The position numbers and the translations under genes are program-made. A stretch of DNA of 64,000 nucleotides from Candidatus Blackallbacteria bacterium (GTDB lineage: Bacteria; Cyanobacteriota; Sericytochromatia; UBA7694): the NCBI GenBank assembly GCA_051715345.1, contig JBPXJQ010000049.1, positions 20,015 to 84,014 on the forward strand. Reading direction: 5' to 3'. Below the pieces are notes generated by a model, which ran no database searches, was not told the DNA's origin, and saw only the letters and a list, made by a program, of their open reading frames with translations. Positions 220 through 17,275 of the stretch are shown one piece after another (within the stretch, counting starts at the first letter, position 1; each line of letters starts with the position of its first letter).

Positions 220-464
220 GGCTTGAGTTCTTTTTCTATCTGCATCAGGGTCTCCAGATCCGCCAAGACCTTTTCCGCTGCTTCGGGGTCTAAAAGCGAG
301 AGCGCAAAACCCACATGCACGAGCACATAGTCTCCTACTTGGGCTTCGGGCACATAGGCCAAACTGATCTCTTTGATGATTCCGCCAAAACTCACTTTGG
401 CCGGGAGCAGCAGGTCGTGGGGGTCGACGATTGCGATAATTTCACCGGGCAGGGCTAAACACAT
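216..464 (-). CDS. hypC: Hydrogenase maturation factor HypC (HupF/HypC family)
   Basis: The internal start gives [13 protein letters not shown]..., the canonical HypC N-terminus with Cys2. Length is about 83 aa. The table ORF 216..551 is over-extended upstream into hypF. Confidence 0.85.
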
Positions 465-2797
465 GTGCGCTCCTTTGATTTGGCTAAAAGCAGGGAATAG
501 AGTTGACCAAGGGCCAGCCCACCATCGTTGGGGGGCACAAGCTGGGGCCAATAGACCTTAAACCCAGCTGCTTGAAGGCCTTCGCGGCAGAGTTGATGCA
601 AGAGGGCATTTTGAAAACAGCCCCCCGTGAGCACAATCTCTGGAATCTCAAACTGGATCGCCATTTTTACCAGGGCCTGGGCCAAACTCCAGTGGAATTG
701 GTAGGCGATCTGGGCCTTGGGCCTTTGTTCTGCAAGGGCCTGAAGCAGATCTGTGAGCAAGTCCGAAGTGGGAAAGTAGAACAGGCCCCCTTTTTCGCGC
801 AGGGCATAGTCAACCCCTGGGGTGGGGTGCGCTTTTTCAGCCAAATACTCCAAAGCCATGGCGGCTTGGCCTTCAAAACTGCTGACATGGCAGAGATCCA
901 ACAGCGACGCCACGGCATCAAAGAGCCGGCCCACACTGGAGGTCTGCAGGCAATTTAAACCGTGTTGGAGGGCTTGGTTTAAGAGTTTTTTCTCTTGCGA
1001 ATTCAGGGCCTTTAAGGGGGCCAAGTCTTTGTGCCAAAGGGTATCTCCCAGCTTTTGCCAGAGCCAGCCATGCGCCTGATAAGCCGGTTTGCGCAGGGCT
1101 CTTTCCCCGCCAGCGAAGCGCAGGGGTTCAAAGCTGGCGCGGCGCAAATAACGGCCTCCGGGGGAGATTTCCAAAGCCTCTCCGCCCCAGAGCTGGCCGT
1201 CTTCACCCAGCCCCAGGCCATCCCAGGCAAAGCCCAAGACCGGGCCCTGCAATTGGTGCTCTGCCATACAGGCCAAGACATGGGCGTGGTGGTGTTGCAC
1301 AGGCCAAACCCGAATGCCCATTTTTTCTGCAACCACACTTGAATAATAATCCGGATGGGTGTCTCGGGCCACAGCTTGGGGGGCCCCTTGGTAAAGGGTT
1401 TGAAAATGGGCCAAACTGGATTCAAACAGCTGAATGCTGAGATCCTGATCCAGATCCCCCAGATGGGGGCTGAGAAAGGCCTGGGGCCTGCCCGCTTGGG
1501 CAAAGGCCAAGCTGTTTTTTAAATGCCCGCCCACAGCCACGAGGTCGTGCTCAGGGGCCTGTGCAAGCGGAATCGGCAGCGGGGCAAAGCCGCGTGCCCG
1601 GCGCAAGACAACGGGCTTGCCGGCATAAAAGCGCAAAACGGAATCGTCAACGGGCCTGAGAATTTCGCGATTGTGGCTCAAAAAAACATCGGCAATGCTG
1701 CCCAAGCGCTCCAGGGCCTCGGGATCGCGCCACGCCAAAGGCTCTTGCGTGCGATTGCCGCTGGTGGCCACCAAAGGACGTTGCAGGGCCTGGGTTAACA
1801 ACCGGTGCAAGGGGGTGGTGGGCAACATCACCCCCAAGAGGGGATTGCCCGACTGGGTGACAGCAGGGGCCAAAGGCCCACCCGCTCTGCGGCGCAGAAG
1901 TAGAATCGGGGCGGCGGGGGATTGCAGCATATCCGCTTCGGCCTCGGCAAGAAAACACAGCGTCTGGATACTTTGCAGATCTGGCAGCATCAGCGCCAAC
2001 GGTTTGTCCGGGCGATTTTTGCGCCTGCGCAGCTCCAAGACTGTGGCCTGAGCGGTGGCATCACAGATCAGCTGAAAGCCCCCCAGGCCTTTGAGCGCCA
2101 GGATTTTTCCCTCTTCAAGCGCTTGAATGGCTGCTTGCAATGCCGCCTGGCCGCTGAGGGGAGAGGCCTTACATTCACTTGGGCAGCTGCGCTCACTTAG
2201 CGTGGATTCAAATAGCGTGGATTCAAAAAAGACCAATTCGGGGCCACAATCGGCACAGGCGTTGGGCTGGGCATGAAAGCGGCGATCGCGTGGATCACGG
2301 TATTCACTTAAACAGGCCGGGCACATCTCAAACGCGGCCATGCTGGTCTTGGGCCGATCGTAAGGCAAACCCGCAATAATCGAATAGCGGGGGCCACAAT
2401 GTGTGCAATTGGTAAAGGCATAGCCAAAGCGCCGATTCTGGGGGTCGTCCATGTCGGCGCTGCAGGCTGGGCAAATGGCCAAGTCTGGCAGTACCACGGC
2501 TTGGAAGTCCCCGGTTAAGACACTTGGGCGAATTTCAAATCCCTGCCAATCCTGAGCAGGCAACTCTTCCAGGTCAAAATCCTGGTAAGTCACCAAAGTG
2601 GGTTTTTCACTCTGGAGCCCCTGCAAAAAGGCTTCGACCGAGGGAGCGGGCCCTTCGGCGCAGATTTCAACCCCCTGGGGGGAATTGAAGACATAGCCAT
2701 TTAAGCCCTTTTGCAGGGCCAGATTGTAGACAAAAGGCCGAAAGCCTACACCTTGGACGCATCCCTGGACGCGGAGGCGGATCGATCTTGTTTGCAT
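455..2797 (-). CDS. hypF: [NiFe]-hydrogenase maturation carbamoyltransferase HypF
   Basis: About 780 aa. It has an N-terminal acylphosphatase-like domain (VQGCVQGVGFRPFV), two Zn-finger CxxC pairs, a YrdC-like domain and a C-terminal Kae1/HypF carbamoyltransferase domain. Using the second Met (MQTRSIRLRV) aligns the N-terminus with E. coli HypF; the table ORF extends to 2815. Confidence 0.93.
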   Translation of the reverse strand: MQTRSIRLRVQGCVQGVGFRPFVYNLALQKGLNGYVFNSPQGVEICAEGPAPSVEAFLQGLQSEKPTLVTYQDFDLEELPAQDWQGFEIRPSVLTGDFQAVVLPDLAICPACSADMDDPQNRRFGYAFTNCTHCGPRYSIIAGLPYDRPKTSMAAFEMCPACLSEYRDPRDRRFHAQPNACADCGPELVFFESTLFESTLSERSCPSECKASPLSGQAALQAAIQALEEGKILALKGLGGFQLICDATAQATVLELRRRKNRPDKPLALMLPDLQSIQTLCFLAEAEADMLQSPAAPILLLRRRAGGPLAPAVTQSGNPLLGVMLPTTPLHRLLTQALQRPLVATSGNRTQEPLAWRDPEALERLGSIADVFLSHNREILRPVDDSVLRFYAGKPVVLRRARGFAPLPIPLAQAPEHDLVAVGGHLKNSLAFAQAGRPQAFLSPHLGDLDQDLSIQLFESSLAHFQTLYQGAPQAVARDTHPDYYSSVVAEKMGIRVWPVQHHHAHVLACMAEHQLQGPVLGFAWDGLGLGEDGQLWGGEALEISPGGRYLRRASFEPLRFAGGERALRKPAYQAHGWLWQKLGDTLWHKDLAPLKALNSQEKKLLNQALQHGLNCLQTSSVGRLFDAVASLLDLCHVSSFEGQAAMALEYLAEKAHPTPGVDYALREKGGLFYFPTSDLLTDLLQALAEQRPKAQIAYQFHWSLAQALVKMAIQFEIPEIVLTGGCFQNALLHQLCREGLQAAGFKVYWPQLVPPNDGGLALGQLYSLLLAKSKERTCV

Positions 2798-5202
2798 TCT
2801 TCTTCCGCTTTGCAAATATTCTGAATGCCTTTTAAGAGGGCATCGGGATTAAACGAGATACTGTTGATTCCCGCTTTGACCAAAAAGGCGGCAAAGTCAG
2901 GGTGATCACTGGGGGCTTGACCACACAGCCCTATTTTAGTCCCTTTTGCGTTGGCTGTGGCAATCGCCTGAGAGATCATTTTGGTCACGGCGGGGTTTAA
3001 TTCCGAAAAAGAGTCCATCATGATCTCTGAATCGCGGTCCACGCCCAAGGTGAGCTGGGTCAGGTCATTGGAGCCAATCGAAAAGCCGTCAAAGATCTCC
3101 GCAAATTCTTCAGCCAGAATCACATTGCTGGGAATTTCACACATCACATAGATTTCTAGGCCATTTTCGCCCCGTTTAAGCCCACAGGCCTCCATGGTCA
3201 AAAGCACCCGGCGGCCCTCTTCGAGGGTGCGGCAGAAGGGAATCATCAGCTTGACATTCGTCAGCCCCATTTCGTCGCGAACCCGTTTCATGGCCTCACA
3301 TTCCAAGGCAAAGCCCGCCCGGTAGCGGGGGTGGTAATAGCGGGAGGCGCCGCGAAAGCCAATCATGGGATTTTCTTCGTGGGGTTCAAACTCCCGGCCA
3401 CCAATCAAATTGGCGTATTCGTTGGATTTAAAATCGCTCATACGCACAATCACATCGTGGGGGTAAAACGCTGCAGCAATGGTGGCCACTGCCTCTGAGA
3501 GTTTTTCGACAAAATACGCACTTTTGTTGGGGTATTCTGCGGTCAGTCTTTCAATTTCTGCTTTGGCTTCCGCATCTGCCAAATGGGGGTAATTGACCAG
3601 GGCCATGGGGTGAATTTGAATGCTGTTGTTGATCACAAATTCCAAGCGCATCAGCCCCACGCCACGATTGGGCAAAAAGGCCAATTTAAAGGCCTGTTCG
3701 GGGTCTGCCAAAATTAACATCACATCGGTTTTTTCTGGCAATTGCACGCCCGCGGTGTCGATCACCTGTTCGTCCCACTCCAGCAAACCGTCGTAAACCT
3801 GGCCCACCGTGCCATCGATACAGGAGACAGTCACAGCCTGGCCATCGCGGATTTGACTTGTGCCATTGCCGGTGCCAACCACAGCCACTGCGCCGGTTTC
3901 GCGCGCCACAATGGCCGCATGGCTGGTGCGACCCCCTTTGTCGGTGACAATGGCGGCCACTTTTTTTAAGATTGGGTCCCAGTCGGGATTGGTAATTTCG
4001 GTGACCAGCACATCCCCAGTTTGAATTTTGTCGATTTCATCGGGGGATTTGAGCACCCGTGCGCGCCCCGAAGCAATGCGGTCGCCAATGTTTTTGCCCG
4101 TGACCAAAACTGAACTTCTGCTTTTAAGCGTGTAACTGTGGTAGCGATAGGCTTGGCGGTGTCCGCTGTGAACGGTTTCGGGCCGGGCCTGGACAATATA
4201 CAACTCCCCGCTCAGGCCGTCTTTGGCCCATTCAATGTCCATCGGCTTTTGGTAATGGTCTTCAATCGTTTGGCACCACTGGGCCAATTGAATCACTTCA
4301 TCAGGGCTGAGCACCCATTTGGCTTGTAAATGTTCGGGGGTCGTGAGATTGACGATCGTGTGGCTCACCCCCACACTGTGACGGTGACTGTGGGGGGCGT
4401 CTTCTGCATAGACCAAGGTCTGGTTCTTTGAACCGCGTTTTTTGCTGATCAGGGGATATTTTCCCTGTTTGAGGGTGGGTTTAAAGACATAAAATTCGTC
4501 GGGATTGACGTTGCCCTGCACGACATTTTCACCGAGGCCCCAAGCGCCCGTGATCAAAATAATATTTTCAAATCCCGTTTCGGGATCGAGGGTAAAACAG
4601 ACCCCAGCACAGGCTTTGTCGGAGCGCACCATTTTTTGCACCCCCAGTGAGAGCGCCACTTTCATGTGGTCAAAGCCATTGTCTTCGCGGTATTTGATCG
4701 CCCGATCGGTAAACAGTGAAGCATAACAATGGAGACAGGCTTCAAACAATTCCTGTTCATTGCGAATATTTAAATACGATTCCTGTTGGCCAGCAAAACT
4801 GGCTTCGGGCAGGTCTTCAGCGGTGGCGGAGGAACGCACCGCGACCTCCAGTCTGCCACCACAATCGATACTGAGTTGGGCATACGCGGAGAGGATCGCC
4901 GCCTTGAGATCGTCGGGGAGCACGGCGTGTAAGATCTGTGAACGGGCTTGGCTGCCCACGGCATGTAAATTGCTGAATTGGGTCCGGTCGAGTGTTTGTA
5001 ACAGGGCACTCAGAGGCTCAAACAGCCCATTGTGGTTTAAAAAATGCCAATAGGCCTGTGCCGTGGTGGCAAAACCATCGGGGACCCGGATGCCTTGGCG
5101 TGATAAATGTTGAACCATTTCACCGAGTGAGGCATTTTTGCCACCGACTTCTTCAATGTCTTCAATGCAAATCTTTGAAAAGGGTTTGATAAAGCTGTTC
5201 AT
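2746..5202 (-). CDS. ppsA: Phosphoenolpyruvate synthase (pyruvate, water dikinase)
   Basis: 818 aa. It has an N-terminal PPDK_N ATP-grasp domain, a central mobile phospho-His domain (GGRTSHAAIVARE) and a C-terminal PEP-utilising TIM barrel. Domain order and length match PpsA, not a rifampicin phosphotransferase. A GGAGAG RBS lies upstream of the ATG at 5202. Confidence 0.9.
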   Translation of the reverse strand: MNSFIKPFSKICIEDIEEVGGKNASLGEMVQHLSRQGIRVPDGFATTAQAYWHFLNHNGLFEPLSALLQTLDRTQFSNLHAVGSQARSQILHAVLPDDLKAAILSAYAQLSIDCGGRLEVAVRSSATAEDLPEASFAGQQESYLNIRNEQELFEACLHCYASLFTDRAIKYREDNGFDHMKVALSLGVQKMVRSDKACAGVCFTLDPETGFENIILITGAWGLGENVVQGNVNPDEFYVFKPTLKQGKYPLISKKRGSKNQTLVYAEDAPHSHRHSVGVSHTIVNLTTPEHLQAKWVLSPDEVIQLAQWCQTIEDHYQKPMDIEWAKDGLSGELYIVQARPETVHSGHRQAYRYHSYTLKSRSSVLVTGKNIGDRIASGRARVLKSPDEIDKIQTGDVLVTEITNPDWDPILKKVAAIVTDKGGRTSHAAIVARETGAVAVVGTGNGTSQIRDGQAVTVSCIDGTVGQVYDGLLEWDEQVIDTAGVQLPEKTDVMLILADPEQAFKLAFLPNRGVGLMRLEFVINNSIQIHPMALVNYPHLADAEAKAEIERLTAEYPNKSAYFVEKLSEAVATIAAAFYPHDVIVRMSDFKSNEYANLIGGREFEPHEENPMIGFRGASRYYHPRYRAGFALECEAMKRVRDEMGLTNVKLMIPFCRTLEEGRRVLLTMEACGLKRGENGLEIYVMCEIPSNVILAEEFAEIFDGFSIGSNDLTQLTLGVDRDSEIMMDSFSELNPAVTKMISQAIATANAKGTKIGLCGQAPSDHPDFAAFLVKAGINSISFNPDALLKGIQNICKAEEECKQDRSASASRDASKV

Positions 5203-5224
5203 ATCTAACTCTCCACGCTCTCTT

Positions 5225-5256
5225 GATGTTCTCTGTCGCTGATGTTCTCTATCGCT
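5225..5256. repeat. Tandem 16-bp direct repeat (gatgttctctgtcgct / gatgttctctatcgct) in the hypA-ppsA intergenic spacer
   Basis: Two adjacent 16-mers differ at one position. They lie between the hypA-like stop (5257) and the ppsA RBS. Confidence 0.8.
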
Positions 5257-5526
5257 TTAATCGTCGTCTTCAACTTCAATCCTGGTTAAGACAATCGATT
5301 GTGCATCGGGGGCGTTTTGATCCCCGTCTTCTTCGATGTTTAATTCTGCGCCTTCGCAGCAGGTCCCCCTGACAGCATGTTCAAAGTGTTCGCGAAAATG
5401 GGAGCCTGAAATATGGGCCATGGCCCCAATTTTGACCGAGACAGAGACCACGCGGCTGGCATTTTCGCGTTGCGCTGTGTCTTCGATTTTTTTGAGCAAA
5501 TTGGCCAAAAGCGAAAATTCATGCAT
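5257..5526 (-). CDS. hypA: HypA-like hydrogenase nickel-insertion protein, atypical (zinc-site CxxC pairs absent)
   Basis: The MHEFSL N-terminus is the Ni-binding MHE motif of HypA. Length is 89 aa with an acidic C-terminus (EVEDDD). The only cysteines are one adjacent CC pair, so the canonical CxxC-X12-CxxC zinc finger is absent. Confidence 0.7.
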   Translation of the reverse strand: MHEFSLLANLLKKIEDTAQRENASRVVSVSVKIGAMAHISGSHFREHFEHAVRGTCCEGAELNIEEDGDQNAPDAQSIVLTRIEVEDDD

Positions 5527-6013
5527 GGGATATTTCTCCTGTTTGATGTGTTTGAAAATAGGCGGGGTAGCGGTTGTGGATTCGCAACATTAATTCTGGC
5601 AGGGCAGCAGTGACAATCGGGGAAAGCCCCGTGCCTGAGCCAAAGTCGGCCCCTTCGATGCCAAACAGTGTCAGGGCTTGGGGCAATTCGCCCAAGGCCT
5701 TTGCCATTTCAATCGCTTCGGCCACACTGAAGGCATGGGTGGAATAGTGAAAAAAACGTGAGGGAATGACCTGTTCTGAGGCCTCCAGCTCAAAGACCGT
5801 GCCAGGCAGCGCGCCAGAACAGACCGCATCGACCAGCACAACCTGCTCATACCCTTGCCAAGCCGCCATCAAGGAACTGCCTTCACCGCTTTGAACCTGC
5901 AGCTCGACTCCCTGCAAGTCTGACCTTTGAAGCTGTTTGAGTAGAGCTGGGCCGAGGCCATCGTCTTTGCGAAAGCCATTGCCAATGCCGAGGATCAAAA
6001 GCGGTTTTAACAT
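5519..6013 (-). CDS. Hydrogenase maturation endopeptidase (HoxW/HyaD/HycI family)
   Basis: 164 aa with ILGIGNGFRKDDGLG, the GxGN...DDG signature of [NiFe]-hydrogenase large-subunit C-terminal proteases. Confidence 0.85.
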   Translation of the reverse strand: MLKPLLILGIGNGFRKDDGLGPALLKQLQRSDLQGVELQVQSGEGSSLMAAWQGYEQVVLVDAVCSGALPGTVFELEASEQVIPSRFFHYSTHAFSVAEAIEMAKALGELPQALTLFGIEGADFGSGTGLSPIVTAALPELMLRIHNRYPAYFQTHQTGEISHA

Positions 6014-7434
6014 GTTTTGAACTCCCGGATCAGGGTTTGCAGGGATTCTCGGGCGTCGCCAAAGAGCATGCGGCTGTTGTTTAAAAAGAAGAGGGGATTG
6101 TCGATGCCAGCAAACCCTTGGCCCATCGAGCGTTTGAGAATGATCACATTGTGCGCTTTTTCGGCATCCAAGATCGGCATGCCGTAAATCGGGCTGTGGG
6201 GATCGCTGTGGGCCGCCGGATTGACGATATCGTTGGCCCCAATCACCAAACAGACATCGACACGGGGCAGCCGGGAATTGGCCTCTTCCAATTCGAGCAA
6301 TTGTTCATAAGGGACATTGGCCTCTGCCAACAGCACATTCATATGGCCTGGCATGCGTCCCGCAACGGGATGAATCGCGTAAAAGACCTCTGTGCCGCGT
6401 TTGTTTAAGAGTTCAGCCAATTCAAACACAGCGTGTTGGGCCTGGGCCACAGCCATGCCATAACCGGGAATAAACATCACGGTTGCAGCGCTCTCCAGCA
6501 GGTAAAAGGCCTCTTCCCCTGTCAGGGGATGGGCGTGCAGGGCAGGTCCTTTGGCTCCCGCTGCGGCAGCACTGGCGCCAAACTGGCCAAAGAGCACCTG
6601 GGCCAAGCTGCGATTCATGGATTTACACATGATCTGGGTCAGGATCAGACCACTGGCCCCCACCAAACAGCCCGTGACAATTAAGACCTTGTTGAGCAAA
6701 ACAAAACCCACGGCACAGGCTGCCAGTCCAGACAGGGCATTGAGCAGGGAGATCACCACGGGCATGTCGCCTCCGCCAATCGGTAAAACGGCCAAAACCC
6801 CCAAGAGCAGGGCCAAGCCCCCTGCGATCAACAAAATCGAGAGGGGGGGCGAGGGCAAAGCCAAGTAGAGCAATCCCAAGCCCAAGCTCAGACAAAAAAG
6901 CAGGAGATTGATCAGGCCCTGGCCTTGAAAGCGCAGGGGTTTGCCGCTGAGTTTTTCCGAGAGTTTGGCCCAGGCGATCAGGCTGCCGCTGAAGGTGATG
7001 CCGCCAATCAAAACCGAGAGATAACCCGCTCCACTGGATAAGATGCTGAGCGCGGGGCGAATCAAGGTCTCTGCCAGGGCCACCAAGACAGAGGCCAAGC
7101 CCCCCAAACCATTAAACAGGGCCACCATTTCGGGCATCCCCGTCATCGGCACCCGCAGGGCCAAAATCACCCCCAGGGCGGTGCCAATCAAAAGCCCCAA
7201 TAAGATCCACTGAAAATGCAGGCCCGTGCTCAACAGCGTGGCCAAAATGGCCAGCAACATTCCCCCCGCAGAGAGCAAATTGCCTTGGCGGGCAGAGGTT
7301 TGTTTGCCCAGCAATTTAATCCCCAAGACAAAGGCCACCGCAGAAAAAACATATAAAAATTCGCGGGCCAAATTCAGATTCAGATTCAGATTCTGGGCAT
7401 TCAAAAAAGCTAAATTCATGCCAAGCACATTCAT
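6007..7434 (-). CDS. pntB: NAD(P) transhydrogenase subunit beta
   Basis: 475 aa. It has a multi-pass membrane N-terminal half and a C-terminal NADP(H)-binding dIII domain (GYGMAVAQAQHAV, HMNVLLAEANVPY). The start overlaps the pntAB stop. Confidence 0.9.
   Translation of the reverse strand: MNVLGMNLAFLNAQNLNLNLNLAREFLYVFSAVAFVLGIKLLGKQTSARQGNLLSAGGMLLAILATLLSTGLHFQWILLGLLIGTALGVILALRVPMTGMPEMVALFNGLGGLASVLVALAETLIRPALSILSSGAGYLSVLIGGITFSGSLIAWAKLSEKLSGKPLRFQGQGLINLLLFCLSLGLGLLYLALPSPPLSILLIAGGLALLLGVLAVLPIGGGDMPVVISLLNALSGLAACAVGFVLLNKVLIVTGCLVGASGLILTQIMCKSMNRSLAQVLFGQFGASAAAAGAKGPALHAHPLTGEEAFYLLESAATVMFIPGYGMAVAQAQHAVFELAELLNKRGTEVFYAIHPVAGRMPGHMNVLLAEANVPYEQLLELEEANSRLPRVDVCLVIGANDIVNPAAHSDPHSPIYGMPILDAEKAHNVIILKRSMGQGFAGIDNPLFFLNNSRMLFGDARESLQTLIREFKTC
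7373..7394. repeat. Hexanucleotide tandem repeat (TTCAGA)x3.5 inside the pntB 5' coding region, encoding NLNLNLNL
   Basis: The plus strand reads aattcagattcagattcagattctgg. The repeat is in-frame, and the protein shows AQNLNLNLNLARE. Confidence 0.85.
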
Positions 7435-7721
7435 GGTGGTGGTCCCGCAGAATCGTTTTTTTTCTCAAACATTTTTAACATGCGGTCGGTGACCACATAG
7501 CCCCCAACCACGTTAACCGTGGCAAAGATCACCGCAGCTGTGCCCAAGAGGGTCCCCCAGAGGGAATGCCCCGAACCGGCTGCCAAGAGCGCCCCCACCA
7601 CCGTGATCCCTGAAATGGCGTTGGAGCCCGACATCAGGGGGGTGTGTAATTGTGAAGGCACACGGGCAATGAGTTCAAAGCCCAAAAAAGCGGAGAGAAT
7701 GAGGATCAACAGCAGTTCCAT
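7431..7721 (-). CDS. pntAB: NAD(P) transhydrogenase subunit alpha part 2 (membrane dII portion)
   Basis: The internal Met start gives MELLLILILSAFLGFELIARVPSQLHTPLMSGSNAISGITVVGAL..., about 97 aa. This is typical of a split alpha subunit. Its ATG overlaps the pntAA stop at 7721; the table ORF is over-extended to 7829. Confidence 0.8.
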   Translation of the reverse strand: MELLLILILSAFLGFELIARVPSQLHTPLMSGSNAISGITVVGALLAAGSGHSLWGTLLGTAAVIFATVNVVGGYVVTDRMLKMFEKKNDSAGPPP

Positions 7722-8878
7722 CAGCCCAGCCTTCCTTGCCAATAATCTTTGAGTTTGGCCTGTTGCCATTCGCCTTGAGACGTCAGCAAAGCGGCCATGT
7801 ATATTTCGTTTTGGGCATCCAAAACCCATGTTTTTGTTTCTGCTTGCGCTTGGCTATCCGCCAATTCTTTGAGCAAAAAAGACAGATTGGCGGAATACAT
7901 CCGACTGGCATCGTGGGGCACCCGGCCAGCCAAATTGCGGTAGCCGATCAATTTCACGCCTTTGCGTTCGATCAGCTGATCGGCAACGATCCCTTCCACA
8001 TTGCCGCCACTGTCCACGGCCCCATCGACCACAACCGAACCCGGTTTGAGCAGATCCAGCAGTTCTTCTGTGAGGATCAGCGGCGCGCGTTTGCCAAAGA
8101 CCTGCGCGCTGGTGATCACCACATCGCTGTGGGAGACAGCCTCTGCCAAACCTGAGGCCTGTCTTTTGAGTTGTTCTGTACTGACTTCTGTGACATACCC
8201 TTCTGAATTGGTCTCGGTGGGCGAGAGGGCAATTTGAATGGCCCGCGCCCCCAGGGACATAATTTGCTCTGAGGCTTCCGGGCGCAGATCATAGCCCTCG
8301 ACCCGCGCCCCCAGTCGCCGGGCTGTGGCGATGGCCTGCAGGCCCGCAACTCCTGCGCCAATCACCAAGACCCGCGCTGGTTGCAGGGTTCCGGCTGGGG
8401 TGCTCATCATCGGAAAGACCCTGGGCAAATATTCTGCTGCCAACAAAACCGCCACATAGCCAGCCAGACTGGCTTGAGAGGTTAGGGCATCCATGGCTTG
8501 GGCCCGGCTGATGCGGGGAATCCACTCCATGCTCAGGGCCCTGATTTTTTTGTCGAGGCAGACCTGCAAAAGGGCCTGATTCTGAAATGGATTCAGATAG
8601 CTAATATGCAGGGCCTGGGGGGAGACCCAAGCCATTTCTTCGGGTGGGGGTGGATTGAGGCGCAAAATAAGATCCGATTCTGCCAAGATCTGCCGCCGGT
8701 CATTTAACACAGTGGCGCCCATCTCCAGATAGTCTGTGTCGGGAATCTTCAGGCTTGTTGCCAGATCCGCTTCGATCTGCACCGCTAAGCCCAGGGCCCT
8801 GAGTTTTTTGACCTCAGCGGGCAAAAGCGGCACACGGGCCTCTTCGCTCTGACTTTCGCGGGGGACCCCGACGATCAT
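7721..8878 (-). CDS. pntAA: NAD(P) transhydrogenase subunit alpha part 1 (dI, alanine-dehydrogenase-like NAD(H)-binding)
   Basis: 385 aa with a Rossmann VLVIGAGVAGLQAIATARRLGARV. The MIVGVPRES start is typical of PntA. Its ATG (8876-8878) overlaps the hydrogenase large-subunit stop (8875-8877) as ATGA. Confidence 0.9.
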   Translation of the reverse strand: MIVGVPRESQSEEARVPLLPAEVKKLRALGLAVQIEADLATSLKIPDTDYLEMGATVLNDRRQILAESDLILRLNPPPPEEMAWVSPQALHISYLNPFQNQALLQVCLDKKIRALSMEWIPRISRAQAMDALTSQASLAGYVAVLLAAEYLPRVFPMMSTPAGTLQPARVLVIGAGVAGLQAIATARRLGARVEGYDLRPEASEQIMSLGARAIQIALSPTETNSEGYVTEVSTEQLKRQASGLAEAVSHSDVVITSAQVFGKRAPLILTEELLDLLKPGSVVVDGAVDSGGNVEGIVADQLIERKGVKLIGYRNLAGRVPHDASRMYSANLSFLLKELADSQAQAETKTWVLDAQNEIYMAALLTSQGEWQQAKLKDYWQGRLG

Positions 8879-10173
8879 GAGCGCGCCACCTCCAGTTTGA
8901 GGAAATGGGTCGAGCAGGAGATACAGGGGTCGTAATTGCGAATGGCCTGTTCGCAGAGATGTTGCAATTCGGGGTCGGCTTTGTCTAAATAGGTGTGCAA
9001 TAAATGCCGCAAATCTGCTTCGATGGTCTTTTGGTTCTGTGAGGTCGGCGGCACAATTTTGGCGTTAAGAATCAGCCCGTTGGCATCGATCTCGTAGCGG
9101 TGATAACAGATTCCCCTGGGGGCTTCGGTACAGCCATGGCCTTTTCCCGCTTTGACGGGCCAAGACACAAACGCCGCTTCGGGCTTTTGGTAAAGTTCAA
9201 TCAGGCGCAGGGCTTCTTCAAGTGCGTAGAGGGTTTCCAGGCTGCGCACCAAAATGCTTTTAAACGGGTTGTGGCAATGTTCAGCAATCCCCACTTCTTC
9301 TGCCAGGGCTTTGACATTGGGGCTGAGTTGCTCAAAATTGAGGTTGTACCGTGCCATGGGCCCGACAAAATAGGCCCCGTGGCCGGTGTGAATAGAATGC
9401 AATGCAGTTGAGCGGGCCACGTGTTCTTCTTCAAAATGCGCTTCGTATTCAGCAATGGGAATATCCAGGCCCAAATTGGAGACCAAGCGGCCTTCGTGAA
9501 TGGCGTATTCGCTCGGGTGTTTGAGGGCCACGTATTCATATTCCCGCTCAAAGGCTGGGAATTCAAATCCTGCCACCCAGCGCAGGGTGTCTATTGCGGC
9601 TTCTCGCGCCCATTCCAGTTCGGGTTTCAGCGCAAGCAATTCTGTTTTTTCGGGCAGGCGGTAAAAGCCCCCCACCTGTAAATTGATCGGGTGGATTTCC
9701 CGGCCGCCCAAAAGGGTCATCAGGGTATTGCCGATTTTTTTTAAGCGCAAACCGCGTTTGACAGCTTCTGGCGCGACTTTGGCCAGGGCCACTGCGTCTG
9801 GAAAACCGAGAAAATCTGGGGCATGTAACATGTAAATATGCAAAACATGGCTTTCGATCCACTCGCCGCAGTAGATCAGCCTGCGCAAACTGCGCAAAGG
9901 TTCGGGGACTTCAAGTCCGAGAATCGCTTCCATGGCCTGCACGGCCCCCATTTGGTAGGCAATTGGGCAAATGCCGCAGATCCGCGAAGTGATGTCTGGC
10001 GCTTCGCGGTAATCGCGCCCCCGCAAAAAGGCCTCAAAGAAGCGGGGCGGCTCAAAAATTTTCAGTTGGACTTCTTCCAATTCGCTGCCGTTCATTTGGA
10101 TATACAGCGCCCCTTCCCCCTCGACACGGGCCAGGTAATCGACTGAAATGATCCGGCGTTTTTTCTCACTCAT
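8875..10173 (-). CDS. Group 3b [NiFe]-hydrogenase large (alpha) subunit
   Basis: It has the N-terminal RICGICP Ni-binding motif and the C-terminal DPCISCSTH motif followed by a cleavable tail. The start is placed at the Met ([10 protein letters not shown]) 2 bp after the small-subunit stop; the table ORF extends to 10248. Confidence 0.9.
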
Positions 10174-10930
10174 GCTGCAGGCTCTCCTCTCGAAAGGCGG
10201 GGGCATTGCTATTAAAGCCCCGGTATAATCGGACCAATTCGGCTTCACTGACCCCCAATGATTTAAACGCTTGGCTCAATGCCGCCGGATGGGGGGAATC
10301 CGAGGGGCCAAAACAGCCGTAGCAGCCCCGTTGGAATGCCGGGCAAATCGCGCCACAGCCCGCGTGGGTCACTGGGCCCAAACAGGGGATTCCCTGTGAG
10401 ACCATCACACAGACCGTGCCCCTGAGTTTACATTCATGACAGACACTTTCGCTGGGCAAATGGGGCTTGCGCCGGTTTAACAGGGCGTTGATCAGCTCCA
10501 GCAATTGGTTTTTATTGATCGGGCAGCCCCGCAATTCAAAATCGACTTTGATATGCTCGGAGATCGCCGTGGATTGGCTGAGGGTTTGAATGTATTCGGG
10601 CCGGGCGTAGACCATGCGCATAAAATCTTCGACAGCCTGAAAATTGCGCAGGGCCTGAATCCCCCCAGCGGTGGCACAGGCCCCAATGCTGATCACCAAA
10701 GCCGATTGGGCCCGAATGGCTTGGATCCGCTCCAAATCGTGGGGGGTGGTGATTGAGCCCTCGACCAGAGAAATGTCATAGGGGCCCGCCACCACCGCCC
10801 GGCTGGCCTCTGGAAAATGGGCAATTTCAAGGGCATCTGCCACCATCAGCAATTCGTCTTCACAGTCCAATAAACTGAGCTGGCAGCCATCACAGGAGGC
10901 AAATTTCCAAACAGCCAATTTGGGTTTCAT
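10166..10930 (-). CDS. Group 3b [NiFe]-hydrogenase small (delta) subunit
   Basis: 254 aa with the [16 protein letters not shown] Fe-S motif of group 3 small subunits and additional Cys clusters C-terminally. Confidence 0.88.
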
Positions 10931-11770
10931 TTAGACCTCCCGGGTATTCAAAAGGGATTGGACCTTGTCATAGCGAAAGACGGGGCCGTCTTTGCAAATA
11001 AAGTGGGGACCGAATTGGCAGTGGCCACACAGCCCCACGGCACATTGCATATTGCGCTCCAAAGAGACATAGATCTGTTCGGGCTTGAGGCCCTTTTCCA
11101 AGAAGGTGTGAGCACTGTAGCGCATCATGATTTCGGGGCCACAGATCATCGCCAAGGTCTGATCGGGATCCAGGTTTTGCGCTTGGATCAGCGAAGTTAC
11201 CACCCCTACCCTGCCCTGCCAACTCTGTGTGGCTTGATCGAGGGTGATATGCACGGCGATCTCTGCGCCTGTTTGCCAGGACAGCAGTTCGTCGGCATAG
11301 AGGATTTCGGCATGTTGTCGGGCACCATAGAGCAAGGTCAGCGAACGGATTTCTGAGCGCATCGCCAGGGCCGCATAAATGGCAGGTCGAACAGGAGCCA
11401 AACCCAACCCTCCGGCCACAATCACCAGATCTTTGCCTTTGGCTTTGTGTAAGGGCCAGACGGAGCCAAAGGGCCCGCGCAGCCCCAGTGATTGCCCTGG
11501 TTTGAGTTCTGCCAAGGCGTTGGTTACAGCCCCCACTTTGCGAATGGTGTGGATTTGCGCCGAGGTGTTTTCGGGCGAGCCCGAGATTGAAATGGGCACT
11601 TCTCCCACCCCAAAGACATAGAGCATATTAAACTGCCCTGGCCGAAACGGGGGGATCGTCTGGACACGCGTTTGTACTTCGGGCTTTTCACAGCTCAGGC
11701 TAAAGGTCTGGGGGGTTTCCCAGCGAAAATCGCTGATACGCCAGACCTCTGGCAAAAGCGCTTGGCTCAT
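10931..11770 (-). CDS. Sulfhydrogenase gamma-like subunit (FAD/NAD(P)-binding, [2Fe-2S]; PyrK/AsrB-like)
   Basis: 279 aa with a ferredoxin-NADP-reductase-like fold and a C-terminal [15 protein letters not shown] cluster. Its ATG overlaps the upstream gene's stop as ATGA. Confidence 0.85.
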
Positions 11771-12228
11771 GTTTGACCTCCATACAGATCCAATAATTGC
11801 AAGCGCGTGGCCTGCAGTCGTTCTACCATCATTTGCCCAAAGCGCTTCTGAATCAGATACCCCATTTCATGGTCAGTTTCACATTGCTCCAAAAAGGCTT
11901 TGGCATCAAAGACCAGAATTTGGCTGTCTTCAAGCGCCTGGGCATCAAAATGCCATTTATACGGGGGATAGAGCCAAGACCAGCCCAGCAGATCCCCTTC
12001 ATGCAGGGTTTGGATCCGCACGCAGCCCCGCTGCGAGGAGAACATTTCAATCGCCACCGTACCCGATTGAATCAGGTAAAACGCTTCCGCTTTGCCGCCC
12101 AATTTAAACACAAAGTCGTTGGCCGCAAAGCTCCGCAGGTGTGCGCAGCGAATCAGGGCCTGCAGGTAGGGGGTGGGCAAATCTTTAAAATGGCGTTGTT
12201 TGCGGATCGCGTCCTCTTTAATTTCCAT
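11767..12228 (-). CDS. Cyclic-nucleotide-binding-domain-only protein (Crp/Fnr effector-domain-like, no HTH)
   Basis: 153 aa with a beta-roll [22 protein letters not shown]...[12 protein letters not shown]. The phosphate-binding cassette is degenerate, with no RTA/RSA. The gene is embedded between the beta and gamma hydrogenase genes, with an ATGA overlap downstream and a 5-bp gap upstream. Confidence 0.7.
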
Positions 12229-13360
12229 GGGGGATCTCCTCTGCTTTTGTTTGTAATGCGTTCAATGCTTCAATTTCTGAGGTGAGATCGATTCCCACCG
12301 GGCACCAGGTAATACAGCGGCCACAGCCGACACAGCCTGATTGGTCAAATTGCTCCTGCCAAAAGGCCAGTTTGTGGCTGATCCACTGTCGGTAGCGTGC
12401 GCCTGGGCTTTGGCGAATCGGCCGACCCGCGGTAAGTGTAAAATTCAATGAAAAACAGGAGTCCCACTCACGCCAGCGCTCACTGCTTGTGCCTGCCAAG
12501 TCGGTCACTTCTTGAACCCCTGAACAAAAACAGGTGGGGCAAACCAGTGTGCAATTGCTGCAACTCAGGCAGCGCTCCCCCACGTCTTTCCAATGGGGGC
12601 TTTCATACCCGCTTTTTAAGGCCGCGCTGGCCTGCTGGGGATTCAAACTCCGGCCCATCTGCGCTGCCGCCGCTGCCCACAACTCACTTTCTTTTTCAAG
12701 CAGTGTTTCTGGGGCCTGGCTCGGGCTGCATTGCTGGAGCAGGGCTGCCCCTTTGGCGCTGCCAGCTCGGGCCAGATAACAGGGGTCTGCGGTATCAAGT
12801 ATTTCAGTGATGGCCAGATCGTAACCGGGCCCGGCTGCTGGGCCTGCCTCCATCGACACACAAAAACAGGTATTGCCGGGCTCGGTGCAGTTCACGGCCA
12901 AGATAAAGATCTGCTCCCGTCTTTCCCGGTAAAAATCATCGCTGTAAGGGCCTTCGAGAAAGACCCTGTCTTGGATTTGGATCGCTTTCAGTTCACAGCC
13001 CCGCACGCCAATCATGGCGTATTTGGGCACAACCTGATCGGGGGCTGTGATCTGCAAACCACGGCTGTTTTGTTCCGCTTTCATCAACAATTGCCGAGGC
13101 GGGTAGAGGTATTTTTTCCAAGCCTGGGGGCCCACAACATAGCCAAACAAGGCTGCATCGTCTCGGGAACGCAAGCGGTAAGTGCCTTTTTCTTGAATGT
13201 CGCCGATACCCATCGGCAGATCTGCTGTACTCTGAATGGCGTCGTAGACAATGGCCTGATCCCTGACCACGGGACCCACGGTCTGGTACCCAGCGGCCTG
13301 CAATTGGCTGAGCAGTTGATCCAGTTGTTTGCGCTGGAGAAGTACGACTTCTGTTTGCAT
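12218..13360 (-). CDS. Sulfhydrogenase beta-like subunit ([4Fe-4S]; AsrA-like)
   Basis: It contains [16 protein letters not shown] and [15 protein letters not shown] ferredoxin motifs. The start is placed at MQTEVVLLQ, preceded by a GGGGGA RBS; the table ORF extends to 13411. Confidence 0.85.
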
Positions 13361-13533
13361 CTTCGCTGATTCCCCCGTTTCTCGGCTCCTTTGAGGAAAC
13401 ACGATCCTCATCTACAGCATGGCTGATTATCCCTTTATTATCTTTGATAGATCTCCAGTATGAAATTGATCTTGATCAGGAAAAAATCAAATAATCCAGA
13501 TAAAATAGTGATAAAGCGTTAAACTTAAAATAC

Positions 13534-14586
13534 ATGAAACCCCAGACACGAAATTATGCCGGTGTACACAGCAATAATGCGCAATTTGCGGGATTTTCTT
13601 GGGCATTTACCCGAAATATTCGCGCAGAGCTTGTTATTTTTACTGGGCTGACGGGATATCTTGAAACCCTGACAGATCCGTCTTATCAGGGGCAAATTGT
13701 GGTGTTTACCTCTCCCCAAGTGGGCAATTATCTGCCTGATTTGACCCGGATGCAATCCCCCCGGATTCAAGTGGCGGGTGTGGTGGCCAGGGCCTATAGC
13801 CCGCCCCCAGAGAGCCCAAACCAAATCACTTTGGCCCAGCTTTTGCTCACTGCAAAGATCCCCGCCCTGATGGGGGTCGACACCCGCAGTTTGACTTTGG
13901 CGCTGCGCCAAGACTCCCAAACAAGACGCGAAGTTGAGCTGATAACGGTGCCGGGAGCGCCGATTGAAAATCCCGCCTTGCCCCATCCCGCTCAGGTCGC
14001 AATTCAGGCCCCGTATTTGCACAGAGGTGGCGAAAAAACGGTGGTGCTGGTGGATTGTGGCGTCAAAAACCGGCTTTTAGACCTGCTGCTGCAGGCGGGT
14101 TTAAGTGTGTGGCAGGTTCCCTGGGACTTTGATTGGCGGGATTTGCCCCATCAGGGCCTGTTGCTATCTAATGGCCCAGGCAATCCCGCTGAGTGTGAAA
14201 CCACAATTTCGATTTTAAAATCCGGGCTCAATCCGCAGATCCCTGTTTTGGGCATTTGTCTCGGGGCACAATTGCTCGCCCATGCGGTGGGTGCAAGCAC
14301 CGCCCCCCTGCCATTTGGTCACCGGGGGGCCAATCATCCCTGCCGCGATCGTTTGAGTGGGGCCTGTTATATCACCGCGATGAATCATGGCTATGCCATT
14401 GTTTCGGAGAGTTTGCCCCCGGAATGGCAGGTCTGGTTTGAACATCTCCACGATGGCAGTTGTGCAGGATTAAAACACCGTGTTTTTCCTTGGCGGGGGG
14501 TGCAATTTCATCCGGAGGGCTGCCCAGGCCCCACAGACACGGCATTTATCCTTGCGGATTTTCTGAGCGAGGTTCTCGATGCCTGA
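13534..14586 (+). CDS. carA: Carbamoyl-phosphate synthase small (glutaminase) subunit
   Basis: 350 aa with N-terminal GYLETLTDPSYQGQIVVFTSPQVGNY, the GICLGAQLL catalytic Cys region and the C-terminal FHPEGCPGP. Confidence 0.85.
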   Translation: MKPQTRNYAGVHSNNAQFAGFSWAFTRNIRAELVIFTGLTGYLETLTDPSYQGQIVVFTSPQVGNYLPDLTRMQSPRIQVAGVVARAYSPPPESPNQITLAQLLLTAKIPALMGVDTRSLTLALRQDSQTRREVELITVPGAPIENPALPHPAQVAIQAPYLHRGGEKTVVLVDCGVKNRLLDLLLQAGLSVWQVPWDFDWRDLPHQGLLLSNGPGNPAECETTISILKSGLNPQIPVLGICLGAQLLAHAVGASTAPLPFGHRGANHPCRDRLSGACYITAMNHGYAIVSESLPPEWQVWFEHLHDGSCAGLKHRVFPWRGVQFHPEGCPGPTDTAFILADFLSEVLDA

Positions 14587-17275
14587 ATCCGTTTTGGTGC
14601 TGGGATCGGGTCCGATTCAAATTGGCCAAGCAGGGGAGTTTGACTATGCCGGGGCCCAGGCCCTCAAAGCGCTCAAAGAAAGGGGGTTCCGCACCCTTTT
14701 GTTAAATTCGAATCTGGCCAGTGCCCAGACGCTGGGGGTTTTTGCCGATCGCGTGTTTGCCCTGCCACTCACACCCGCCTCGGTACAAGCTATTTTGGCA
14801 AGTGAAACCCCGATCGGGGTTTTGGCGGGATTTGGCGGCCAATCGGCCCTCAATTTGGCCTTGGAACTCGATCAAGCGGGGCTGTTAAAGCGCTTGCCCC
14901 TGCTCGGCACCGCTCTGGAGACCCTGATGATCTGTGAAGATCGCTTGAAGTTTTTCAGATTTTGTCAGAATCTGGGTTTGCCGGTCCCCAAGACCTATGT
15001 TTTGTCGGATCTCTCGGCCTTTAATTCTGAATTAAACGCAACAGACGCCTTTCCCTTGCTGCAGCGCAAAAGTTTTGCCTTGGGGGGCCAAGGCGCGGTC
15101 TTTTATCCCAACTTGGCGGCATTGTGGGCAGATCCCGGCCTCAAAGATCGTTTGAACCCAGCGGCACTTTTAAACGCGCCACTTTTGCTCGAAGAAGATC
15201 TCAGGGGCTGGCAAGAAATCGAGTTTGAAGTTTTGGCGGATGCTGCGGGCAATCAATTGGTGGTCTGTGCCACTGAAAACATAGACCCAATGGGCATTCA
15301 CACGGGGGACAGCTATGTGGTCACGCCGCCGATGACTTTGAGTGACGCCAGCTATTTTGGGCTGCGGGCGGCTGCCCTGAAATTGGTCTCCGCCCTGAAA
15401 TTGGTCGGGGAATGCAATGTGCAATTTGCTTACCATCCCAAAAGTGACGCCTTTCGCCTGATCGAATTGAACCCCCGTTTGAGCCGCAGTTCTGCGTTGG
15501 CCTCCAAAGCCACGGGTTATCCGATTGCCTATGTGGCCGCCCAATTGGCCTTGGGTGGGCTTTTGCCTGACATTGTCAATCCACTAACGGGGGTCACCTC
15601 CTGTTTTTTTGAACCGGCGCTGGACTATGTTGTGGTCAAAGCCCCCCGTTGGCAATTTGACAAATTTCCAGGGGCCGATCGGCATTTGGGGCCCGAGATG
15701 AAATCCATCGGTGAAAACATGGGGATCGGAGAAGATTTTGCTTCTGCTTTTGCCAAAGCATGGGCCCTGACCCAAACTCAGAAACTGCCTCATGGGGCAA
15801 ATGGGTCAAATTGGTCAATGACTGCCTTGCGGCAAGAATTGGCCTGTCCCACAGATCTGCGCATGTCGGCCCTCTTTGCGGCGCTGGAACAGGGCCTGCC
15901 TTTGGCCGAAATAGAGGCCTTAACAGGGTTTTCTGGCTGGTTTTTGCAGGCCTTTCGAGATTTGGCACCCAGGCTCAAAACGGGCCATCTCGGTTTCTGG
16001 GGCTTTCGCCAAATCGACACCCTGGCAGGGGAATTTCAGGCCCAGACGGCCTATCTCTATCGCGGCCAAGCCCTTGAATTCACCTTCGGGCCAGGTCCCT
16101 GGGTCTTGATTCTGGGCAGTGGGCCCTATGGGATTGGTTGCTCCGTCGAATTTGACTATTGCTGCGTCAGCGCGATTTATGCCCTGCAAGCAGCGGGTTA
16201 TAAAGTAGCCATGATGAATTCAAACCCCGAAACCCTGAGCACAGATTGTGATTTGGCGGATGCCCTGATCTTTGAACCTCTGTTGCCTGAAAGCCTCAAT
16301 GCAGTGATGGCGGCGCTTCGACCTGTGGGTGTCTTGGCTTCGCTGGGCGGGCAAACACCCCAGAATTTATTGCAGGTCTTGCCCCGGCACTGGCCCTTTT
16401 GGGGCACGCCAGTGGGCCAAATTTTAAAAGCTGAAAATCGCCTGGCATTTGCCCTGGCCCTGGATCAATTGCAGATCCCCCAGGCCCCTTGGGCCAAAGT
16501 GACATCCTTGGCTGACGCTTTGGCGTTTGGTCAAAAGGTCGGTTATCCGCTGATCTACCGCCCTGGTTTTGTCTTGGGGGGGGGCGGTATGCAGGTGATT
16601 GAAAACGCCCAAGCCTTAGAAAAATGGGGAGACCATCTTCAGCTCAACGGCCCTTTACCGCGCACAGAAGGGGCCTTGCTGAACCGCTTTTTGGCGGAGG
16701 CCAAAGAGTTTGAACTCGATGGCATCGCCCGTTTGGGGCAATTGGAGTATTACCTCTTTTCAGAAAATCTTGAACCCTCAGGCATTCATTCCGGGGATTC
16801 TCACCATGTCTTCCCGGCCCAAAGCCTGTCCCCTGAGGTGCGCGCCCAGGCTTTGACTTATGCCTTAAAATTGGCACAATCGTTTGAACTCCACGGTTTG
16901 TTTAATCTCCAGTTTTTTTACCATCAAGGCGCGGTTTTGCTGATCGAAGCCAATCTGCGCGCTTCCCGCAATCTGCCTTTTTTGAGCCATGTTTCGGGCC
17001 AGAACCTGGTCAGTTTGGCGATTGAGCGCCTGCTTGCGAGCGCCCCCTTGGCAGAAGCCCCTGTCGAAATCAGTGCAGATCAGGTCGGGATCCGGGTGCC
17101 AACGTTTTCTTGGGAGCGCATGGTCGGGGCCAAACGGGAATTGGGGGTGGAAATGAAGGCCACTGGCGAGTTTTGTCTGCTGGCGGACAGCTTTGATAAC
17201 GTGCTTCAGCTGTGTTATAATTTGCCAGATTTTTGTGCCTTCACACCGTCTTGGCGCCTCTCCAAAGGAGAATGA
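14579..17275 (+). CDS. carB: Carbamoyl-phosphate synthase large subunit, short form lacking the C-terminal allosteric (MGS-like) domain
   Basis: 898 aa. It has two ATP-grasp halves (GSGPIQIGQAGEFDYAG; LILGSGPYGIGCSVEFDY). The protein ends directly after the second-half PxFSWERMVGAKRELGVEMKATGEF segment. Canonical CarB is about 1070 aa. Confidence 0.88.
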   Translation: MPESVLVLGSGPIQIGQAGEFDYAGAQALKALKERGFRTLLLNSNLASAQTLGVFADRVFALPLTPASVQAILASETPIGVLAGFGGQSALNLALELDQAGLLKRLPLLGTALETLMICEDRLKFFRFCQNLGLPVPKTYVLSDLSAFNSELNATDAFPLLQRKSFALGGQGAVFYPNLAALWADPGLKDRLNPAALLNAPLLLEEDLRGWQEIEFEVLADAAGNQLVVCATENIDPMGIHTGDSYVVTPPMTLSDASYFGLRAAALKLVSALKLVGECNVQFAYHPKSDAFRLIELNPRLSRSSALASKATGYPIAYVAAQLALGGLLPDIVNPLTGVTSCFFEPALDYVVVKAPRWQFDKFPGADRHLGPEMKSIGENMGIGEDFASAFAKAWALTQTQKLPHGANGSNWSMTALRQELACPTDLRMSALFAALEQGLPLAEIEALTGFSGWFLQAFRDLAPRLKTGHLGFWGFRQIDTLAGEFQAQTAYLYRGQALEFTFGPGPWVLILGSGPYGIGCSVEFDYCCVSAIYALQAAGYKVAMMNSNPETLSTDCDLADALIFEPLLPESLNAVMAALRPVGVLASLGGQTPQNLLQVLPRHWPFWGTPVGQILKAENRLAFALALDQLQIPQAPWAKVTSLADALAFGQKVGYPLIYRPGFVLGGGGMQVIENAQALEKWGDHLQLNGPLPRTEGALLNRFLAEAKEFELDGIARLGQLEYYLFSENLEPSGIHSGDSHHVFPAQSLSPEVRAQALTYALKLAQSFELHGLFNLQFFYHQGAVLLIEANLRASRNLPFLSHVSGQNLVSLAIERLLASAPLAEAPVEISADQVGIRVPTFSWERMVGAKRELGVEMKATGEFCLLADSFDNVLQLCYNLPDFCAFTPSWRLSKGE

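Follow-up and report, generated by a model that had tools for sequence, protein, structure and literature searches.

The window analysed here, a 64-kb stretch of a Candidatus Blackallbacteria/Sericytochromatia genome, holds a train of ten consecutive minus-strand genes, running from position 5257 to about 13400, in which the genes of a [NiFe]-hydrogenase and of its maturation enclose those of a predicted proton-translocating transhydrogenase (Pnt). Gene identities were derived from an open reading frame (ORF) listing and from Pfam and NCBIfam profile searches, and the order was found to be hydB, a gene for a cyclic nucleotide monophosphate (cNMP)-binding domain, hydG, hydD, hydA, pntAA, pntAB, pntB, a maturation protease gene and hypA. 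An earlier note on this DNA had given the same identities, order and strand and had described overlapping junctions, all of which held up, the genes overlapping by 1–11 bp or abutting. The pnt trio thus separates hydA from hypA and the gene of the hydrogenase-specific protease; beyond the train, no further hydrogenase genes were found in the rest of the window.

The hydrogenase has the four-subunit architecture of group 3b, with an AsrA-like iron-sulfur β subunit and an AsrB-like γ subunit carrying FAD, NAD(P) and [2Fe-2S] sites. The β subunit gene hydB (hyhB; 12218–13360, minus strand) encodes a protein of about 380 aa with a 4Fe-4S dicluster domain (Fer4_22, 1.6e-32; best matches ShyB, HydB and AsrA), and its start is most likely ATG 13360, which is conserved in four loci together with a GGGGGA ribosome site; the longer ORF reaching ATG 13411, from which the gene had previously been taken to begin, is not conserved. 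The γ subunit gene hydG (hyhG; 10931–11770, minus) is recognized by NAD_binding_1 and DHODB_Fe-S_bind, and by matches to PRK08345, ShyC, HydG and AsrB, while the small subunit gene hydD (hyhS; 10166–10930, minus) matches Oxidored_q6 (2.6e-24) and ShyD/HydD, with no twin-arginine translocation (Tat) signal visible at the N-terminus of its product. The large subunit gene hydA (hyhL; 8875–10173, minus, start ATG 10173) encodes 432 aa (NiFeSe_Hases, PF00374, 1.1e-30) and, as expected of a NiFe large subunit, its translation displays the two CxxC pairs ligating the Ni-Fe site, in the motifs RICGIC and DPCISCSTH, followed after DPCxxCxxH by a C-terminal extension of nine residues on which the protease would act.

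Compared with proteins of solved structure in the Protein Data Bank (PDB), HydA scored highest against 3b enzymes (224–227 bits), followed by Mvh (3c, 181), Hox (3d, 135) and Frh (3a, 134), its closest solved relatives being the Thermococcus kodakarensis and Pyrococcus furiosus 3b enzymes (5yxy, 9nez, 9e15; about 227 bits). All four subunits matched NCBIfam sulfhydrogenase models best (ShyA and HydA for the large subunit), and all of them fell well under the cut-offs of these models, which are equivalogs for the archaeal enzymes (e.g., ShyA 274.5 vs. 700 bits); the window enzyme is therefore to be seen as a bacterial 3b relative and not as an orthologue of P. furiosus sulfhydrogenase I or II (SHI, SHII). 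On these grounds the enzyme, which stands closer to characterized 3b enzymes than to those of groups 3a, 3c, 3d, 1 or 2, is considered a cytoplasmic bacterial hydrogenase of 3b type, a class read from PDB scores and NCBIfam matches, with a presumed specificity for NADP(H).

The three pnt genes follow hydA without a gap. The start of pntAA (7721–8878, minus) overlaps the hydA stop by 4 bp, and its 385-aa product, the α-1 subunit, corresponds to the NAD(H)-binding domain dI (AlaDh_PNT_N 3.3e-56, AlaDh_PNT_C 1.1e-35) and aligns to positions 1–365 of PRK09424 (1.2e-100), dI thus being carried by a separate soluble polypeptide. The α-2 membrane subunit encoded by pntAB (7431–7721, minus, start ATG 7721) has 96 aa, a conserved LHTPLMSGSNAISG motif and a match to PNTB_4TM (1.2e-33). 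The β subunit encoded by pntB (6007–7434, minus; 475 aa) combines the dII membrane and the dIII NADP(H)-binding domains (PNTB 4.8e-177, 590 bits, model positions 2–455 of 456), and its residues 27–473 align full length with Thermus thermophilus PntB (4o9u_B, 406 bits). Pfam gathering thresholds were surpassed widely by the Pnt proteins; the NCBIfam equivalog cut-offs, which are of Escherichia coli type, were missed (337.6 vs. 383 for PntAA and 453.4 vs. 689 for PntB), the NCBIfam PntA model describing a fused 510-residue α subunit. Gene order and domain set (dI; α-2 membrane; dII plus dIII) are the same as in PntAA/PntAB/PntB of T. thermophilus and Rhodospirillum rubrum. By domains and order, pntAA-pntAB-pntB is a complete transhydrogenase of three polypeptides, for which proton-coupled hydride transfer is predicted.

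Junction lengths, computed with the best-supported start codons and given as negative values for overlaps in nt, were −11 (hydB/cNMP gene), −4 (cNMP gene/hydG), 0 (hydG/hydD, abutting), −8 (hydD/hydA), −4 (hydA/pntAA, as ATGA), −1 (pntAA/pntAB, as TGATG), −4 (pntAB/pntB), −7 (pntB/protease) and −8 (protease/hypA). The same overlaps occur in the related loci L001 and L002, and the same or similar ones in the gene calls of L088, L086 and L171. Shine-Dalgarno-like GGAGG or GAGG sequences lie 5–9 nt 5′ of most start codons, inside the preceding gene, with pntB as a weak exception. The train had earlier been taken to end at hypA, but it extends further on the same strand with ppsA, after a gap of 54 nt, and then hypF; upstream it is bordered by the divergent carA and carB. 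The train probably constitutes one operon, as far as co-transcription can be judged from gene layout, and because pnt lies between hydA and the maturation genes, expression of the protease and hypA apparently needs read-through across pnt. A consensus promoter and terminator scan of positions 4800–14000 gave 5 vs. 5.4 and 13 vs. 12.1 matches (observed vs. shuffle), counts at chance level that make these scans uninformative on internal signals. An Rfam scan of positions 1–20000 returned no RNA family, and a tRNA scan found none.

To place this arrangement among its relatives, 80 species-representative loci from many phyla, with HydA at least 60% identical, were searched with all window proteins. 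In the bacterial relatives surveyed, the genes usually run in the order hydB, the cNMP gene, hydG, hydD, hydA and the protease, after which a short hypA and hypF often come. Of 71 surveyed loci, 70 had the cNMP gene, and the start of the protease gene lay at most 800 nt from hydA in 62 of 73, so that the baseline of hydBGDA alone, assumed in the earlier note, does not describe the bacterial norm, and only the insertion of pnt is unusual. When the neighborhoods with at least 4 kb 3′ of hydA were surveyed for pnt, a check that the note had proposed, pnt was found in two of 59 informative loci, both from Sericytochromatia. In three loci the hydD match was split in two pieces with overlapping or shifted coordinates (L003 9211–9968, L020 9222–9981, L058 9243–10002), which could reflect a frameshift, a pseudogene or a sequencing error.

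The window HydA is 97% identical to that of L001, a Candidatus Sericytochromatia metagenome-assembled genome (MAG), and 88% identical to that of L002, another Sericytochromatia MAG. Metagenomic context look-ups added three more pnt-bearing lineages, namely L088/L089 (HydA 88% identical to the window), L086 (73%) and L171/L172, the latter being Candidatus Blackallbacteria CG17 in the public NCBI assembly GCA_002781665.1 (HydA 78%, PntB 66% identical). No fewer than six independent assemblies, obtained from different samples, thereby share the 10-gene core, with HydA 73–97% and PntB 66–97% identical and with flanks that differ across lineages, and a chance juxtaposition or an assembly chimera can be rejected on account of this recurrence. 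From the side of the transhydrogenase, 80 PntB relatives from metagenomes, none of them above 58% identity, were all of the three-polypeptide type, in the order pntAA-pntAB-pntB wherever the contig was long enough, and none of them stood beside a hydrogenase, L152 having only AsrA/AsrB-like genes 8 kb off. The next-closest PntB proteins (60–62% identical) are also stand-alone. Three-polypeptide Pnt relatives with readable surroundings are hence stand-alone operons, whereas the window pnt is embedded in a hydrogenase operon and has its own PntB clade.

The hydrogenase-linked PntB proteins form that clade with 100% bootstrap support, and its internal topology is the same as that of HydA, which argues that pnt was inserted once and then passed on vertically with the hydrogenase, being lost no more than once or twice. 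Sericytochromatia-type HydA proteins likewise form a clade with 100% bootstrap support, which also includes the pnt-less loci L081, L003 and L084; in L081 the protease and hypA directly follow hydA, and in L003 and L084 neither does, as might be the case for second paralogues using maturation genes encoded elsewhere. With 29–67% support at its deep nodes, the HydA tree did not distinguish a single gain followed by losses from repeated gains. The ratio of non-synonymous to synonymous substitution rates (dN/dS) was 0.07–0.23 for every gene, pntAA, pntAB and pntB included, indicating purifying selection. From the context look-ups and the two trees, the operon-level linkage of pnt with a 3b-type hydrogenase that had been described for the window proved to be conserved and co-inherited across Sericytochromatia.

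A conserved linkage might reflect co-regulation only, with Pnt acting as a general NADPH supplier or stress redox balancer for which the need arises at the same low oxygen, and with the hydrogenase working independently of Pnt flux. Operons often group co-regulated genes that are biochemically independent, the Pnt proteins look entirely canonical, and relatives run the same hydrogenase without pnt. On the other hand, pnt does not sit at the operon end but between hydA and the dedicated protease and hypA, a position that has been retained down to 66% PntB identity while the flanks have all changed, and the two enzymes share the NADP(H) pool. We consider a purely regulatory link unlikely.

The accessory genes of the train are those expected in bacterial relatives. 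The cNMP gene (11767–12228, minus) encodes a 153-aa protein consisting of the cNMP-binding domain only (PF00027, 4e-14), with no helix-turn-helix (HTH) domain; a stand-alone cNMP domain encoded within the structural operon of a hydrogenase is the hallmark by which we call it a HoxI-like accessory, a likeness drawn from the literature (PMC12319191). A cNMP gene was noted in published 3b clusters and interpreted there as HoxI-like (PMC13332983, PMC12319191), and the homologous 3b cluster of Rhodococcus equi contains both a cNMP-domain gene and a protease (PMC13332983). The maturation endopeptidase (5519–6013, minus) belongs to the HycI/HyaD family (PF01750; TIGR00072, 2.9e-32). HypA (5257–5526, minus) is a short form of 89 aa with the MHE nickel motif and without a CxxC zinc finger (PF01155, model positions 1–66 of 112), the usual HypA having about 113 aa. 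The idea that it is a truncation or a pseudogene was rejected, the zinc-finger-less short form being general: a HypA of 87–91 residues, beginning with MHE (VHE in one locus) and devoid of CxxC, is found in all 21 loci with a hypA match, from many phyla (the window, L009, L014–L016, L022, L025, L030, L031, L033, L034, L036, L037, L039, L041, L060, L065, L067, L073, L076). The cNMP gene was likewise rejected as a novelty of the window locus in view of its occurrence in the survey and in published clusters; like the protease and the short HypA, it is what the surveyed bacterial relatives normally have, and none of the three is therefore novel.

The cNMP gene also bears on a role of Pnt in hydrogenase activation, by which Pnt would supply NADPH to the HoxI-like protein as a ligand rather than sustain a bulk flux. 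The gene lies in the same train, and HoxI of Ralstonia eutropha was reported to bind NADPH and to take part in activation (Burgdorf 2005, as cited in PMC12319191). Such a role appears very improbable, as the cNMP gene accompanies almost all related hydrogenases and is the norm without pnt, a whole membrane transhydrogenase would be a heavy investment for a regulatory ligand, and the likeness to HoxI is a literature-based one.

Upstream of hydB, a motif scan located an FNR/CRP-type palindrome, CTGATCAAGATCAA on the minus strand (13466–13479), with one mismatch to TTGAT-N4-ATCAA. A predicted promoter follows (13437–13464, minus), with −35 TTCATA, a 16-nt spacer and −10 GATAAT, recognized by consensus scan and alignment, the −10 element being conserved in four loci. 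The centre of the box lies 30.5 nt upstream of the conserved GATAAT, i.e., at about −42 relative to the predicted transcription start; in FNR/CRP class II promoters the box is centred near −41.5. Within the 122-bp hydB-carA intergenic region, the box falls inside a block that does not vary between sub-clades with largely saturated synonymous sites. It is identical in L001, L002 and L088 and occurs with 0–1 mismatch upstream of hydB in L171, L086, L081, L084 and L003; overall, boxes with 0–1 mismatch were found 70–165 nt upstream of hydB in nine of nine related loci checked, pnt-less ones included, and the box was absent from the two loci of other lineages in which it was looked for. This suggests that one FNR-type promoter, responsive to oxygen or redox state, drives the train, within which no second copy of the box occurs. 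In the whole window the consensus with at most one mismatch is present eight times, against 3.0 ± 1.45 expected, a count that none of 100 shuffles reached; the other seven boxes lie at 20023, 20862, 42682, 44133, 44469, 57784 and 59257, and the eight may reflect a wider FNR/CRP-type regulon.

With moderate confidence, we interpret the locus as a single FNR-type-activated operon, conserved in part of the class Sericytochromatia, into which pnt was inserted once, and whose products would carry out a proton-motive force (pmf)-assisted transfer of reductant from NADH through NADPH to H2 when oxygen is limiting. At scarce oxygen the train would be transcribed from the promoter upstream of hydB, and Pnt would spend pmf to move hydride from NADH to NADP+. 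The textbook midpoint potentials (E0′) are −414 mV for H+/H2 and −320 mV for NAD(P). Assuming one proton per hydride and a pmf of 150–180 mV, we calculate that the NADP pool could be kept more reduced by up to about 75–90 mV, a shift that would raise the H2 pressure at which reductant can be vented by about three orders of magnitude. The hydrogenase would then discharge NADPH as H2 through the FAD/NAD(P) site of HydG and the iron-sulfur clusters of HydB and HydD, and glycolytic NADH might in this way be disposed of as H2 at a much higher H2 pressure than with NADH alone. These steps would be reversible, and with excess H2 the pair could run from H2 to NADPH to NADH with proton export. We infer the metabolic coupling of Pnt to the hydrogenase and its direction from the operon, and the H2-to-NADPH-to-NADH supermodule put forward in the earlier note has the same footing.

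The direction from NADH to NADPH to H2 is favored because of the FNR-type box, ppsA, the neighboring genes for pyruvate:ferredoxin oxidoreductase (PFOR), pyruvate phosphate dikinase (PPDK) and GpsA, and the parallel with Hyh of Mycobacterium smegmatis (Hyd3, group 3b). Hyh is induced by hypoxia and disposes of reductant as H2, and the phosphoenolpyruvate (PEP) synthase MSMEG_3934 is co-induced 70-fold in hypoxia (bioRxiv 10.1101/2023.09.11.557286). The two systems share the bacterial 3b type and a PEP synthase, co-induced in the one and encoded by ppsA in the train of the other; they differ in that no pnt is reported in the M. smegmatis cluster, and in its control by DosR instead of an FNR-type box. 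The hyh genes, which we take to be MSMEG_3928–3931, would lie near MSMEG_3934.

Hydrogen uptake would be the opposite main mode, in which H2 is oxidized to yield NADPH and a reversed Pnt provides NADH for the respiratory chain, exporting a proton and conserving pmf. Both group 3b enzymes and Pnt can run either way, and the gene anatomy suits the two directions equally. Haem-copper oxidases and NO reductases are moreover part of the respiratory chains of Sericytochromatia (PMC6349859). Expression at scarce oxygen, as suggested by the FNR-type box, does not fit this mode, nor do the ppsA, PFOR and GpsA neighbors, which suggest a fermentative handling of carbon and redox; the operon is devoid of high-affinity uptake features and of a quinone-reactive subunit, and Hyh of M. 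smegmatis, the bacterial 3b enzyme that has been characterized, produces H2. Uptake as the main mode is consequently given a low probability.

Several points weigh against the pmf-assisted release of H2 that we favor. The hydrogenase works without pnt, given that L081, L003 and L084 are pnt-less members of the same HydA clade. Preference for NADPH or NADH is not readable from the HydG sequence; P. furiosus SHII accepts either cofactor, and direct use of NADH by the window enzyme would make Pnt superfluous for the coupling. The FNR-type box is a consensus at family level and could serve the divergent carAB instead, the sequence may also accommodate promoters inside the coding regions of the train, and the genome may hold a second pnt copy outside the 64-kb window. 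Furthermore, nothing points to a physical complex of Pnt and hydrogenase, because PntAA has no clade-specific insertion or docking feature: when hydrogenase-linked PntAA was compared with 46 stand-alone homologues, no clade-specific indels or docking features were found, and 11 diagnostic substitutions were scattered. Docking of the hydrogenase on Pnt (for example of HydG or the cNMP protein with dI of PntAA or dIII of PntB), with channelling of NADP(H), seems quite improbable to us. Were it true, two independent enzymes would form an unrecognized energy-converting hydrogenase system, i.e., a pmf-driven NADH:H+ oxidoreductase or, reversed, a proton-pumping H2:NAD+ oxidoreductase.

Among known systems, the 3b enzymes of Thermococcales (P. 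furiosus SHI and SHII, T. kodakarensis cytosolic hydrogenase) have the same four subunits in the order β, γ, δ, α, to which the window operon adds the cNMP gene, the protease, the short HypA and pnt, besides scoring far below the archaeal equivalog cut-offs. To our knowledge, none of these additions belongs to the four-subunit set of the archaeal prototypes. The soluble hydrogenase of R. eutropha (3d) is similarly a cytoplasmic NAD(P)-linked [NiFe]-enzyme with an accessory cNMP subunit, HoxI, giving a connection to NADPH (as cited in PMC12319191), but belongs to another subgroup and has a NuoEF-like diaphorase and no transhydrogenase genes. NfnAB and Stn, transhydrogenases that bifurcate electrons and also adjust the ferredoxin pool, link the NADH and NADPH pools in the H2-based metabolism of anaerobes (PMC10482914); they differ from Pnt in being unrelated soluble proteins driven by ferredoxin and bifurcation and not by pmf. 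The suggestion that the arrangement may be undescribed still stands: no description of an hyh-pnt operon was found in the searchable full-text literature, in a search covering few subscription-journal papers, and the principal article on how sister lineages of cyanobacteria metabolize hydrogen does not contain the word “transhydrogenase”. The embedded pnt appears to be a new, lineage-specific element built from known parts.

Bacterial 3b hydrogenases are spread over many phyla in our survey, and their role and cofactor coupling are poorly defined. The conserved placement of pnt offers natural genetic evidence that, in this lineage at least, the hydrogenase works on the NADP pool, with its thermodynamic limit shifted by membrane energy. 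The model would provide a concrete and testable way for non-bifurcating organisms to vent NADH as H2, and points to a principle by which the production of H2 from NADH could be engineered. It would also add a metabolic trait to Sericytochromatia, a non-photosynthetic class that is sister to the oxygenic cyanobacteria and has an energy metabolism drawn upon in reasoning on the origins of respiration and photosynthesis.

The first gene beyond hypA, ppsA (2746–5202, minus), encodes an 818-aa phosphoenolpyruvate synthase (PRK06464, 1117 bits, above the cut-off; also recognized by Pfam). The spacer between hypA and ppsA (5203–5256, minus) contains the direct repeat GAGAACATCA in two copies 6 nt apart. 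The carbamoyltransferase gene hypF (455–2797, minus; TIGR00143, 746 bits) has its likely start at ATG 2797, overlapping the 3′ end of ppsA. Besides the window, L001 and L002 were the only loci in which hypF was seen beyond ppsA; the contigs of L088/L089 stop short of it. On the opposite strand, carA (350 aa) and carB occupy 13534–17275 (plus) and share with the hydrogenase operon the intergenic region holding the FNR-type box; carB is shortened, its 898-aa product having no allosteric domain and scoring below the TIGR01369 cut-off. Divergent carAB is kept at this position in L001 (2920–6640), L002 (3025–6640) and L088 (960–4641). Carbamoyl phosphate, the product of carbamoyl-phosphate synthase, is the substrate of HypF for the cyanide ligands, and carAB may be a dedicated supply of it. 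Among pnt-bearing loci, carAB and ppsA are limited to the sub-clade of the window.

Pyruvate genes recur beside this hydrogenase clade. In addition to ppsA between hypA and hypF in the window, a PPDK/PpsA-like gene follows hydA in L090 (9346–12066), and a PFOR gene with a DHO_dh-like gene stands beside hydB in L090 and in L084 (43–4618). In L175 (9456–10460), from a lineage resembling Deltaproteobacteria PRO3, a gene for GpsA, the NAD(P)-dependent glycerol-3-phosphate dehydrogenase, separates the protease gene from hypA in a 3b operon without a cNMP gene, giving a second case of an NAD(P)H enzyme encoded inside an operon of this kind.

Further along the window, two tandem Ser/Thr kinases with C-terminal Cache domains (17233–21518, plus) are followed by a Castor/Pollux-type RCK ion channel (21650–23560, plus). 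In L088, a gene of the same RCK channel family follows carB after one unannotated gene, so that the neighborhood is partly syntenic. At 30420–33038 (plus), an 872-aa protein combines five Big_5 Ig-like repeats with a C-terminal ice-binding-like domain (PF11999, 6e-71), which hints at a cold habitat.

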